Virus record (IMG/VR): IMGVR_UViG_3300022178_003030
Coordinates: 1 to 62,292 of that record
Origin: a virus
Taxonomy: Duplodnaviria > Caudoviricetes
Reading direction: 5' to 3' (one strand)
DNA length: 62,292 nt
How positions within the stretch are numbered: the stretch's first letter is position 1; every line of letters begins with the position of its first letter. The position numbers and the translations under genes were made by a program. Positions 59,784 through 62,292 of this stretch are shown piece after piece. The notes beneath the pieces were generated by a model. That model was not told where the DNA came from, did not search any database, and saw only the letters and a program-made list of their open reading frames with translations.

Positions 59784-62216
59784 ATGAAGAAACTATTATT
59801 CCTTTTATTCTTTTTACCAGTAACGGTATTTACTCAAAACAGTTGGGTTAAAGTGGAAATGCAACCTGATCAGTACGCAGGTGAAACATCATGGGAGATA
59901 TATAACGCAGATGGGGATACCGTAGCGGTTAGCCCTGTGTATACCTCTAATGTTTACCAGGAAGACATTATCCCATTAGACGCGGGGTTCTATAATCTCG
60001 TTGTACATGACTCGTTTGGTGATGGAATATGCTGTGATTTTGGTAGTGGTTGGTTTGGAGTAAGCAATGATTGCGGATTAAGCAACTATGTATATGACTT
60101 CAATTCAGTGCAAGCGGTTGTAGCATTTACTTTAGACGAATGCCTTTTGCCTGTAGCTGGATGTATGGATCCTGAGGCATACAACTTCAATCCTGAAGCA
60201 ACAATAGAAAGCCCTGTTTGTGAATACGAAGTAACATTTAGATTAGACCTAAATGGACCGCATCCACCAATAGAGATACCTGAGGTTAATGGTGAGTTTA
60301 ATGGATGGTGTGGTAACTGCTGGGCTATGTCAGACAATAATACTGATGGAGAATGGCAATACAGCGCAATAATACCCGAAGGTACTTACTTGTGGAAATT
60401 CTCAGCTGATACCTGGCTACAACAAGAGTTGCCTGTCGGTGTGTCTGAGTCCCCTTGCTTTTTATTTGATGCTAACGGATATGTGAATAGAACCTTAGTC
60501 GTAGATGGAAACATTACGCTACCCCCGTTCTGCTGGGAATCGTGCTTGCCGTGTGGAGCTGTAGTAGGATGTACAAATCCTGAAGCTACTAACTGGAATC
60601 CCTGGGCTAACTTTGACGAAGGATGTAACGTTGTAGAATCTGCTGACTGTGGACTTGGCTTTACTGAAATCTCTGTAACTATAGTCCCAGACAATTACCC
60701 CGCAGAAACGAGCTGGAACTTAATAAACAACAGCTTAGGTACATACATATACCAAGTGCCTGTAGGAAACTATGCTAATGCTCCTGTAGGCATTCCAATT
60801 ACAACTAACGTTTGCACACCAGTAGGCAGTTCTGTAACATTTGAACTTAACGATACATACGGTGACGGACTTAACGGAGCTTTATGGGGAGGTCAGGACG
60901 GTGGAGCAATGGTTGCAGCCTGCTCTGAAACTTTATTTCTATTAGAGCCTAGCATGGTTAATTTTAACTATGGTTTATCAGAAAGTTTCAACGCACCAAT
61001 ATGCGAGCAGATAGATGATGTGCTCGGATGTACAGACGAAAACTATGTAGAATACAACCCAGACGCTATAATCTCTATACCTACTATGTGTTTAACCGAG
61101 AAGGTTTATGGGTGTACAGATGAAGATTACTTTAACTACGACGAACTAGCCAACACCGAGGATCAAGTGGACTCATGTTTCTATACGCTTACGATAACAG
61201 ACGGTGTAGGTGATGGATGGTTTGGTAGTTGGGTAGGCGTGCATCAAGATGGCTGGGTGTCACCTCAGTATCAGATGGGTCCTGATGACGGAGACGAACA
61301 ATCTTTTGAGGTCTATCTTTCTTCCGAAGAAGAGATAGGGCTTTACTTCTTTACAACACCGCAGTCTCAGTTGTCTGCCGCGCAATGCGGGTTTATGCTT
61401 GAGGGGCCTACAGGAGATACGCTGCTACAGGTTGATCAGTGGGATGCGGTTCCATTCCCCTACACATACAGCGTTGCACCTTATTGTGGAAACAACTGTG
61501 AGCCATTTACGTATGGTTGTACTGACGAATCGGCTCAGAACTACAATGCTGACGCCAATACTAATGATAGTGAATGCTATTATTCTGCGGGGTGTATGCA
61601 GCCAGGCTATGTAGAATACTACAACCAGGGGTATGAGGCTGACTTTGACGACGGTAGTTGTAACGAGTTAGCTGTCTTCGGATGTATGGATGAGCTGGCT
61701 TTAAATTATGATCCAGAAGCTAACGTGGATATAGAAAGTTGTATTGAAGTAATACTTGATTGCACGGACCCTATTGCAGTGAATTACAACGAGTTAGCTA
61801 ACACCCCTAATAATGAGTTGTGTTTATACGATGCGGGATGTATTGGTGAGCCTGGTGAGCCGTACTACTTAAATGATTCGTGTTACGCCTGGATTATTGA
61901 TATAGACTCGTACTGTTGTGAGGTAGCTTGGGACGATGCGTGTGTTGATCTATATAGTTATTGTGAGCAGGGATGGCCTATGGGGGTCTCACAGGTTAAT
62001 GATGGGCTTAGCGTCTACCCTAATCCAGTAAACAGTGTACTTAACATACAAACCTCTCTAGACGTACTTACAGAGGTGTATAACGCATTAGGTCATTTGA
62101 TAGTATCAGGCACTAAAGAAAAGAGGATTGACCTGAGCGGGCTTCCTAGTGGGGTCTATCAGGTTGTTATAAACTATAACGGTAGGATTATTAATAAGAA
62201 GATTGTAAAGATATGA
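59784..62216 (+). CDS. Secreted Cys-rich protein with Sec signal peptide and T9SS type-A C-terminal sorting domain
   Basis: Signal MKKLLFLLFFLPVTVFT|Q, eight (G/D)C(T/M)x..NY-type repeats, and D.Y..ETSW...D.(F/Y)GDG domains. C-terminal VYPNPV...LNI...VYNALG...IDLSGLPSGVY.V.I......KKIVKI. Confidence 0.85.
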   Translation: MKKLLFLLFFLPVTVFTQNSWVKVEMQPDQYAGETSWEIYNADGDTVAVSPVYTSNVYQEDIIPLDAGFYNLVVHDSFGDGICCDFGSGWFGVSNDCGLSNYVYDFNSVQAVVAFTLDECLLPVAGCMDPEAYNFNPEATIESPVCEYEVTFRLDLNGPHPPIEIPEVNGEFNGWCGNCWAMSDNNTDGEWQYSAIIPEGTYLWKFSADTWLQQELPVGVSESPCFLFDANGYVNRTLVVDGNITLPPFCWESCLPCGAVVGCTNPEATNWNPWANFDEGCNVVESADCGLGFTEISVTIVPDNYPAETSWNLINNSLGTYIYQVPVGNYANAPVGIPITTNVCTPVGSSVTFELNDTYGDGLNGALWGGQDGGAMVAACSETLFLLEPSMVNFNYGLSESFNAPICEQIDDVLGCTDENYVEYNPDAIISIPTMCLTEKVYGCTDEDYFNYDELANTEDQVDSCFYTLTITDGVGDGWFGSWVGVHQDGWVSPQYQMGPDDGDEQSFEVYLSSEEEIGLYFFTTPQSQLSAAQCGFMLEGPTGDTLLQVDQWDAVPFPYTYSVAPYCGNNCEPFTYGCTDESAQNYNADANTNDSECYYSAGCMQPGYVEYYNQGYEADFDDGSCNELAVFGCMDELALNYDPEANVDIESCIEVILDCTDPIAVNYNELANTPNNELCLYDAGCIGEPGEPYYLNDSCYAWIIDIDSYCCEVAWDDACVDLYSYCEQGWPMGVSQVNDGLSVYPNPVNSVLNIQTSLDVLTEVYNALGHLIVSGTKEKRIDLSGLPSGVYQVVINYNGRIINKKIVKI

Positions 62217-62292
62217 AGTACGTATTAGCCTTACTATTGTCTACGCTGTGTATTAGCACAAGCGCACAAGCCCTAAAGAAAACCTTTAAGTT
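62213..62292 (+). CDS. N-terminus of a signal-peptide protein (3'-truncated), probably the start of the beta-barrel at 1-785
   Basis: ATGA overlap with the T9SS gene; MKYVLALLLSTLCISTSA|QALKKTFK. Confidence 0.6.
   Translation, partial: MKYVLALLLSTLCISTSAQALKKTFK

Follow-up and report, generated by a model that had tools for sequence, protein, structure and literature searches.

A predicted envelope triad of beta-barrel, single-transmembrane and thioredoxin-fold genes in aquatic Bacteroidota podophages, joined in one lineage by a type IX secretion cargo gene

INTRODUCTION

Two-component spanins such as lambda Rz/Rz1 pair an inner-membrane protein, which has a transmembrane (TM) segment at its N terminus and a helical domain in the periplasm, with an exported partner encoded by the gene that follows; in the inner-membrane member, or i-spanin, a linker connects the N-terminal TM segment to the periplasmic helix. 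In this study, we analyzed a window of 62,292 bp, which is the whole of the virus record IMGVR_UViG_3300022178_003030 (IMG/VR class "linear," CheckV completeness 100%), and describe at its two ends a module of four tightly spaced genes. They encode a type IX secretion system (T9SS) cargo protein, a beta-barrel of outer-membrane (OM) type, a small protein with one TM segment and a charged helical tail (here called TMCC), and an exported thioredoxin-like protein (Trx). The barrel, TMCC and Trx genes form a triad that recurs in diverged lineages. The triad is like the spanins in being phage-encoded, in joining the TMCC layout to an exported partner encoded next to it, and in lying beside a candidate lysin or a holin homolog in some lineages. 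It is unlike them in that its OM part is a beta-barrel of ~345 aa, that it has a third part with a thioredoxin fold, and that it has no OM lipoprotein; in addition, TMCC is much shorter than typical i-spanins, the module of the window lies far from the holin gene, and no spanin family matches it.

Two further systems resemble parts of the locus. In SprB/SprF and the other pairs of a type-B C-terminal domain (CTD) protein with a PorP/SprF protein, the gene for a T9SS-tagged cargo likewise lies directly 5' of the gene for an OM barrel of ~300-350 aa with a signal peptide. In contrast to these pairs, the CTD in the window is of type A (TIGR04183), and the barrel shows no PorP/SprF similarity, appears to be virus-only and is found free of cargo in other lineages. 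The F-plasmid TraF-type proteins are periplasmic thioredoxin folds that lack CxxC and are encoded together with envelope-spanning machinery. Trx shares with them an exported thioredoxin fold minus the redox motif, and it gives a weak match to TrbC_Ftype (E 0.058, under the cut-off), but the sequence relationship is not significant, and the window protein, of ~90 aa when mature, has other partners.

Phage T9SS cargo and phage OM barrels have both been published. The literature searched holds one report of phage T9SS cargo: the Bacteroidota phage "Cryophage" has genes for proteins that bear T9SS type-A sorting domains and differ from one phage variant to another (PMC7468147). This phage shares phage-encoded type-A cargo with the window, whereas its cargos, in the portion of the paper available to us, are enzymes or PA14 proteins in variable islands, with no linked barrel, TM or thioredoxin genes mentioned there; the cargo described here is Cys-rich, lectin-like and fixed beside a conserved triad. 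Phage OM barrels include lambda Lom and the 1,603 OM proteins of huge phages (10.64898/2026.10.24.761521). As far as the available part of that preprint goes, they have in common with our barrel a phage-encoded signal peptide and a beta-barrel that is presumably inserted in the host OM by BAM. Unlike the window barrel, which has no Pfam family and whose nearest Atlas clusters are viral, most of the huge-phage proteins are given there as having bacterial homologs (OmpA, OmpX, porins). The window barrel is, moreover, a conserved gene of ~60-kb phages and is linked to TMCC. A preliminary description of the window had known of no phage system with this make-up. That statement goes too far for the cargo and the barrel taken singly, and it stands for the triad and the four-gene set, of which the literature searched held no description; the supplementary tables of the huge-phage preprint and the Cryophage paper lay outside the search. 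The triad appears to be new as far as that literature goes.

RESULTS

Four genes at the ends of the window

The module is made up of the following features.

59784-62216, + strand: T9SS cargo, 810 aa (TIGR04183 and PF18962 matches, AlphaFold2 [AF2] model)
62213-62292, + strand: start of the barrel gene with its signal peptide, 26 codons plus 2 nt; its ATG overlaps the cargo stop codon (ATGA)
1-785 (frame 3-785), + strand: C-terminal 260 aa of the barrel, 88% identical to the full-length homolog on contig L002
788-1072, + strand: TMCC, 94 aa, predicted bitopic inner-membrane protein (sequence reading, hydropathy)
1079-1435, + strand: Trx, thioredoxin-like predicted exported protein without CxxC, 118 aa (family profile; the cis-Pro "VPT" loop is kept)

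All of the open reading frames (ORFs) are where the preliminary description had placed them, tightly spaced at the window ends between the portal and capsid genes, with a capsid-like gene nine genes downstream. The ATGA overlap joins cargo to barrel, 2 nt separate the barrel from TMCC, and 6 nt separate TMCC from Trx. The description had also taken the two window ends to be adjacent, which is nearly correct. When joined directly, the ends are out of frame and run into a stop codon, and in comparison with the 345-aa homolog (L002:5746-6783) the window copy of the barrel lacks residues 27-85, so that ~173 nt of the gene are absent between window end and start if the two lengths are equal. The ends are therefore near-adjacent rather than exactly adjacent, with a small assembly hole inside the barrel gene.

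The conserved core is a triad

We surveyed the surroundings of the barrel with family hidden Markov models (HMMs) in IMG/VR, taking 80 of the 456 barrel relatives and a further 23 from a cargo scan, which gave 101 barrel loci on 99 contigs (two contigs occur twice). Sixty-one loci, one contig being counted twice, were well flanked, with 4 kb or more to either side of the barrel. Of these 61, 60 contain all four genes, as the preliminary description had expected for related phages, and the remaining locus has no CTD match. The gene order among the 60 is cargo-barrel-TMCC-Trx in 51, TMCC-Trx-cargo-barrel in 6 and barrel-TMCC-Trx-cargo in 2, and one locus has two CTD genes. Because these phages are related (the portal is 63 to 80% identical across 20 loci), synteny alone is weak evidence; that the four genes stay together while their order changes argues that the linkage is kept.

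The four genes had been proposed as a single unit, which more distant relatives do not bear out. A lineage that we label P0154 has 221 relatives in IMG/VR, and barrel, TMCC and Trx occur together in 77 of the 80 loci examined, with any CTD protein nearby in only 3. Identity to the window proteins in this lineage is 27 to 29% for the barrel, 52 to 59% for TMCC and 32 to 43% for Trx, and hardly any other window protein has a homolog within 8 kb. Nine of 15 P0161 loci have the barrel and, further on, a long TMCC (186-222 aa) and then a Trx of 123-146 aa without CxxC; the other 6 have no barrel ORF match or less than 2 kb downstream. In the P0195 lineage, a long TMCC directly precedes the barrel in 6 of 10 loci, and no Trx or CTD match was seen in the 10. 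No P0161- or P0195-derived locus has a CTD protein next to triad genes, and for three further divergent barrels (P0258, P0180 and P0176) no loci were found in IMG/VR. Since the triad recurs without CTD cargo in diverged lineages, sequence comparison identifies barrel, TMCC and Trx as the evolutionary core and the T9SS cargo as an add-on in the lineage of the window.

The triad is also well conserved. Measured against five complete or near-complete relatives, TMCC has a median identity of 77.7%, the barrel of 74.6% and Trx of 74.4% (ranks 4, 6 and 7 of 34 comparable genes), set against 81.7% for the holin, 79.9% for the large terminase subunit (TerL), 63.8% for the portal, 60.3% for the capsid-like protein and 47.5% for the cargo. 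We dropped the idea that conservation sets the triad above the lysis genes, the holin being equally conserved.

Other exported proteins accompany the triad in some lineages. In at least seven P0161 loci (L154-L159, L164, L150; e.g., L155:9301-9876), the barrel is followed by a gene for a lipoprotein of 191-216 aa in which the lipobox Cys is followed by Glu-Asp; this resembles the Bacteroidota surface-export signal, in which surface-exposed lipoproteins are marked by acidic residues following the Cys. One P0154 contig has six genes with signal-like N termini before the triad (L180:2303-7972), of which L180:4504-5241 gives a CTD-like match. After the triad, the same contig encodes a 206-aa protein with a His...AGC motif, spotted by eye, like that of a DUF5675 protein of the window; neither of the two has a sequence match in the PDB, and pairwise BLAST between them is not significant.

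Properties of the four proteins

The preliminary description had read the four products as an 810-aa Sec-signal protein with a T9SS type-A CTD, an OM barrel with a signal peptide, a protein with a single TM segment at 788-1072, and an exported thioredoxin fold without CxxC, and on each of these points our results agree with it. The signal peptides of all four families rest on a hydropathy screen.

The window copy of the barrel being incomplete, the AF2 model was built on the L002 homolog. It has ~14 strands (pLDDT 75.1, pTM 0.70), the first four of low confidence, and a 75-residue insert with a long helix; segment 72-102 is conserved but of low confidence in the model. Nearly all of the structural matches listed are membrane beta-barrels, among them the TamA barrel (Z 11.2; root mean square deviation [rmsd] 4.1; 188 residues aligned), EstA (Z 10.5), KdgM (Z 10.4) and Omp33 (Z 10.3). 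Foldseek matches include NanC, FapF and PelB, and none of the fold matches stands out. All 40 members pass the hydropathy screen for a signal peptide, which in the window copy was read directly. Compared with a beta-signal ending in an aromatic residue, the C termini read ...GLNYVIL in the window lineage and ...NWRF, ...NYSFK or ...QFVGFGL in others. The model thus presents the protein as an OM-type beta-barrel with a signal peptide.

The barrel has no Pfam family among the 40 members, only subthreshold noise (SH3_5, YfaZ and others). Its 30 nearest Atlas clusters are all viral, an HMM search of 1.84 billion representatives gave 407 members at E<=1e-3, and BFVD holds one clear relative, A0A516LKJ4 (TM-score 0.67, 22% identity), with phage porins and autotransporter-like barrels matching more weakly. 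Neither the barrel nor the cargo has a tblastn match among 50,697 GenBank phage records, which thus hold no cultured carrier of the module. Among 185,579 species genomes, the barrel was found at only 8 loci, all on contigs of metagenome-assembled genomes (MAGs) of scattered taxonomy. These contigs (L105-L112) are filed as Nitrosopelagicus, Parvibaculum, Maricaulis, Rickettsiales, Sphingobacteriales, Flavobacteriales and Winogradskyella; one is 63 kb long, the size of a phage genome, and one 120 kb. They are probably misbinned phage DNA. With no relative in a clearly bacterial chromosome of that set, the family appears to be virus-only, and the concern that the module is chimeric host DNA finds no support. 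Membership of the PorP/SprF family was considered and rejected: PF11751 is not among the Pfam matches of the 40 members at E<=1, and hhalign of the barrel profile with 7 PorP/SprF proteins gives a probability of 4.4%, on the signal peptide only. When the two MAGs with phage barrel loci were searched in six frames, PF11751 matched bacterial PorP/SprF genes only.

TMCC has a short N terminus, one Gly-rich hydrophobic segment (17-35), a conserved Pro-rich linker (WFALQxDI...ELP) and a charged, helical C terminus with a near-invariant RMEFDMKD motif; 24 of 25 members pass the hydropathy screen. In other lineages, TMCC occurs in long forms whose TM segment is preceded by an additional, N-terminal soluble domain. 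Because of this domain and of the charge distribution, in which two Lys precede the segment and the residues that follow have a net charge of -3, the topology is probably N-in. TMCC forms at least 8000 clusters at 90% identity in a collection of 5.8 billion proteins, all "hypothetical" and none with a Pfam domain, and its profile finds only coiled-coil chance matches in the PDB. The gene often overlaps that of the next, exported protein by 4 nt. On a diverged phage contig of ~70 kb, a heme-NO-binding (H-NOX) gene (L150:10413-10964; PF07700, E 2.3e-45) lies directly 5' of a long TMCC, in whose additional N-terminal domain the motif LGxILxxxxxITxxQL occurs twice and DUF4388 matches stay below threshold. 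The H-NOX gene or the N-terminal domain of long TMCC could be a sensory input to the triad.

The Trx family profile matches thioredoxin 2vim_A at E 2.1e-8, one of 183 PDB sequences at E<=1, and the single sequence stays under the Pfam thioredoxin cut-off (17.6 versus 23.5 bits). No CxxC was found in any of 33 aligned members or 89 collected sequences, the WCGPC position being empty, and the five long-lineage homologs likewise lack it. All 33 members pass the hydropathy screen, with an N terminus of signal peptidase I type. Trx is accordingly predicted from its sequence to be a redox-dead, periplasmic thioredoxin fold.

In the cargo, the N terminus (MKKLLFLLFFLPVTVFTQ) is signal-like, and 40 of 41 aligned sequences pass the hydropathy screen. 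Residues 744-809 match TIGR04183, the type-A CTD family, at 54.5 bits (cut-off 23), and PF18962 is matched at 47.8 bits (cut-off 27). Nine of 10 diverse relatives are also above the CTD cut-off, the exception (L069) scoring 17.8 bits. In the AF2 model (pLDDT 75.8), residues 738-810 superpose on the solved CTDs 8gl8_D, 8glk_D and 8gl6_D, which are substrates inside the Flavobacterium johnsoniae translocon, with Z 8.6-8.8 and rmsd 2.1-2.2 over 68-70 residues; with 8glj_D included, the range is Z 8.4-8.8, and the RgpB CTD 5ag9 gives Z 8.4. The modeled domain is thus a genuine type-A T9SS tag with an Ig-like beta-sandwich, and export through the host Sec and T9SS is predicted.

The remainder of the cargo consists, after the signal, of beta-sandwich domains of ~100 aa each (19-117, 293-403 and 464-564), a CBM20-like module, Cys-rich repeats of ~25 aa, and a stalk before the CTD, with 39 Cys in all. 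The CBM20-like module (~145-253) matches CBM20 structures 8x8k (Z 8.7) and 2z0b (Z 8.3), and with the whole model Foldseek gave one informative match, the AMPK CBM48 1z0n_A (prob 1.0). Only ~38% of the 41 aligned sequences have this module. The Cys-rich stalk (629-737) is the best-conserved part, at 61 to 62% identity. The relatives are variable and modular, with lengths of 649-1222 aa, and an Atlas search with residues 288-570, spanning beta-sandwich domains, gave scores of <=0.88, which are leads only.

PHROGs has no family for any of the four proteins, and the PADLOC-DB 2.0 library (2023) has no match for them at E<=0.01, long TMCC giving only coiled-coil noise. A physical trans-envelope complex of the four, as the preliminary description had envisaged, is not supported: complex prediction with TMCC 37-94, Trx 22-118 and barrel 21-345 gave 0.20 and 0.01 where the mark was 0.32, values that carry no weight either way.

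Genome setting

The source is an uncultured aquatic podophage of Bacteroidota, and the module lies inside a long rightward block of structural genes, which includes the following.

54609-56729, + strand: TerL (phrog_6681)
56769-59186, + strand: portal (phrog_6547, E 5e-192), 5' of the module
8767-10185: likely capsid gene (phrog_13704), 3' of the module

Two small genes lie between the portal and the four-gene set, and spacing within the block is 0-35 nt. Matches to sigma-70-type promoters and terminators in the window are at chance level, Bacteroidota promoters being outside the coverage of the tool. From the T9SS tag and the relatives of the portal, we infer that the host is a member of Flavobacteriia: 86 of the 87 GenBank phage records matched by the portal are phages of Flavobacterium, Cellulophaga, Tenacibaculum or Maribacter, and T9SS is described, in the part of the source available, as confined to the FCB group (PMC7468147).

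Near-identical DNA is present in runs of 10 studies, with the labels freshwater, seawater, aquatic viral and marine, and positions 56000-62292 are tiled by short Logan contigs of two independent DNA runs. Contigs from two metatranscriptome runs of one study cover the portal and cargo genes in part, at 0-6 mismatches, which means presence in RNA libraries and not transcription. At 59775-59880, contigs break or have loose ends in two independent DNA runs, and summed depth rises about two- to fourfold from the cargo start onward. These breaks seem to mark a mosaic boundary, where several co-occurring strains share the module downstream of different upstream sequence.

Directly after the module, positions 1471-4230 encode a 919-aa protein with Laminin_G_3 and gene transfer agent (GTA) head-spike-fiber (NF048003, E 1e-19) domains; it has no tblastn match in the five complete or near-complete relatives and for that reason is taken to be a hypervariable fiber. 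Farther on are a protein with the C-terminal domain of the crAss "muzzle" (PF25729; 21894-22799), a 991-aa protein with a pesticin/lysozyme-like domain just under the Pfam cut-off (23762-26737) and a 2775-aa protein with an LPD38 domain (26739-35066), which suggest crAss-like podophage tail and ejection proteins. The window also encodes a class-II-like ribonucleotide reductase (35929-37821), present in only one of the five relatives, a protein with a BT4734-like_N domain and a DnaB-like helicase (39066-40880), a GroES-like co-chaperonin (phrog_13932; 52839-53435) and an HNH endonuclease (53709-54164). A 96-aa protein at 53422-53712, with only weak, coiled-coil-type Pfam matches, is the best-conserved gene across the five relatives (median identity, 82%).

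DISCUSSION

We tentatively read the triad as an envelope bridge that would serve the OM step of lysis in the manner of a spanin, with the lectin-like T9SS cargo as a lineage-specific accessory, a reading that we hold to be possible if still short of probable. Barrel, TMCC and Trx would form a bridge from the inner membrane through the periplasm to the OM that acts late in infection, and this bridge would carry out or control the OM step of lysis in place of an i-spanin/o-spanin pair. TMCC would act as the i-spanin, and the OM lipoprotein would be replaced by the barrel, either together with Trx or by way of it. The cargo, exported through the host Sec and T9SS before lysis, would be a surface or secreted glycan-binding accessory of this lineage. 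The reading draws on lysis-gene neighborhoods in other lineages, on the i-spanin-like build of TMCC, and on the location in the module of nearly all envelope proteins predicted from the window. The core-like conservation of the triad, its persistence across lineages and gene orders, and the spacing of 0-35 nt within the structural block also speak for it. Two further genes are tied to the module only under this reading.

35059-35496, + strand: holin homolog (phrog_3427, E 5.9e-22), not adjacent to the module
51326-51841, + strand: DUF5675 protein (PF18925, E 1.2e-28), candidate C82-like peptidase lysin

By sequence reading, hydropathy and the topology deduced for it, TMCC has the N-terminal TM segment and the periplasmic coiled-coil domain of an i-spanin. 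Among 75 ORF rows, an N-terminal hydrophobic segment was found only in the cargo, TMCC, Trx and two doubtful minus-strand ORFs, that of the holin being internal. A crude regular-expression screen of all window ORFs of at least 35 aa, at every start codon, found no lipobox candidate for an o-spanin. As for the neighborhoods, of 59 P0154-lineage loci with at least 3 kb downstream, 4 have a DUF5675 homolog (56 to 62% identical to that of the window) 12 nt after Trx and a further 2 have one within ~1 kb, and of 33 loci with 7 kb or more downstream, 14 have a holin homolog 4.8-6.1 kb away on that side. In the P0161 lineage, 3 of the 9 full-triad loci (L154, L155 and L159) have a holin homolog 0.5-1.1 kb downstream. 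It is because of these neighborhoods, and because the window has no o-spanin candidate, that we favor a noncanonical OM lysis step among the roles that the preliminary description had listed, with surface display, exclusion or adhesion as a strong rival.

Several observations weigh against a role in lysis. The module is not beside lysis genes in the window, where DUF5675 lies 7.9 kb upstream and the holin ~24 kb away. Elsewhere, lysis-gene adjacency is seen in a minority of loci, several of them on near-identical contigs, and holin distances of 5-6 kb are weak evidence. "Holin" is a PHROG label, and the reading of DUF5675 as a lysin rests on structural similarity reported in a preprint, which proposes it as a C82-like lysin in the part available to us (10.64898/2026.04.11.717860). 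None of the four proteins matches a spanin family of PHROGs or Pfam, nor was a spanin-type family found when roughly 40 other proteins of this phage were scanned. The lipoprotein that defines an o-spanin is absent from the window by the crude lipobox screen, the periplasmic part of TMCC is only ~59 aa, and we know of no beta-barrel that acts as an OM disruptor. Lysis leaves unexplained both the translational coupling of the T9SS cargo to the barrel in 60 of 61 relatives and the lipoprotein gene after the barrel in the P0161 lineage. Signal peptides, topology and timing are predictions.

The strong rival, which we consider somewhat unlikely in itself, is surface remodeling: the T9SS-displayed cargo would form a surface or trans-envelope complex with barrel, TMCC and Trx that masks receptors, excludes superinfecting phages, or makes the cell or its debris adhere to glycan-rich particles. 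The genuine type-A CTD speaks for it, as do the overlap of the cargo stop with the barrel start and the neighborhood of cargo and barrel in most gene orders. The modular variability of the cargo, in its length as in its CBM20-like module, is typical of outward-facing proteins, and the P0161-lineage lipoprotein would fit a barrel with an exchangeable surface partner, if the export signal that we assume for it holds. On the other hand, the triad has no adjoining CTD protein in 77 of 80 P0154 loci or in any P0161- or P0195-derived locus. Exclusion genes are usually early, accessory and fast-evolving, whereas the triad is among the best-conserved genes and sits inside the structural block. No PADLOC family (PADLOC-DB 2.0) matches, and a display role for TMCC and Trx is not evident. 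Two reports, each available to us in part, are in line with surface remodeling: lambda Lom is reported to block LamB (10.64898/2026.10.24.761521), and mutations in T9SS and gliding genes make Flavobacterium psychrophilum phage resistant (PMC9804748).

It is improbable, in our judgment, that the barrel is a phage counterpart of PorV or PorP/SprF that shuttles the cargo to, or anchors it at, the host translocon, with TMCC and Trx as assembly or coupling factors. Genes for type-B CTD cargo lie upstream of porP/sprF-like genes, an order that cargo and barrel mirror, and the Foldseek matches of the barrel include chain 8gl6_F of the T9SS translocon complex (rank 20, prob 0.99, TMq 0.33). However, no PorP/SprF relationship is detectable by PF11751 in the 40 members or by hhalign, the CTD is of type A and not type B, the barrel family occurs without CTD cargo in other lineages, and its fold matches are generic OM barrels, a FadL-type match reaching only Z 7.7.

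Nutrient capture, in which a lectin-like surface protein and an oligosaccharide porin would raise glycan uptake in the manner of an auxiliary metabolic function, is more improbable still. The CBM20-like, alpha-glucan-binding fold of the cargo and the sugar channels among the barrel matches (NanC, KdgM, CymA and chitoporin) would suit it, but those channels match no better than TamA or autotransporter barrels (Z 9.7-11.2), the barrel appears to be virus-only with no relative in a clearly bacterial chromosome, most relatives lack the CBM module, and TMCC and Trx are left unexplained. That there is no module at all, only unrelated neighbors, virion proteins with uncleaved N termini or an assembly artifact, is scarcely credible: the genes do sit among structural genes, their export does rest on prediction, and short contigs do break near 59775-59880 in two DNA runs where summed depth steps up, but the linkage holds in three gene orders and 60 of 61 well-flanked loci and, for the triad, in lineages whose surrounding 8 kb have almost nothing else in common with the window, near-identical DNA is found in runs of 10 studies, none of the four proteins has a structural PHROG match, a virion would have no use for a membrane beta-barrel or a T9SS tag, and the breaks fit strain variation at a mosaic boundary and not host DNA.

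To our knowledge, little has been established about how Bacteroidota phages pass the OM at lysis. The triad is very common, with at least 8000 TMCC clusters and 456 plus 221 IMG/VR barrel loci in two lineages, and its conservation exceeds that of the portal and capsid; even so, Pfam, PHROGs, NCBIfam and PADLOC give it no family name. Should the triad be an OM-lysis device, it would fill a gap in phage biology and provide a marker for annotating thousands of viral contigs. The wider proposition, that it is a new class of egress machinery, a three-part, beta-barrel-based spanin equivalent in very abundant aquatic Bacteroidota phages, and that the lineage of the window in addition hijacks the host T9SS and coats the dying cell or its debris with lectin, strikes us as rather doubtful; were it true, the T9SS would be part of a phage's exit strategy. 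If the triad instead serves surface remodeling, the phage would be building a trans-envelope system whose outer part can be exchanged, a T9SS cargo in one lineage and a lipoprotein in another. Either way, the cargo would represent a phage that routinely uses the T9SS of its host.

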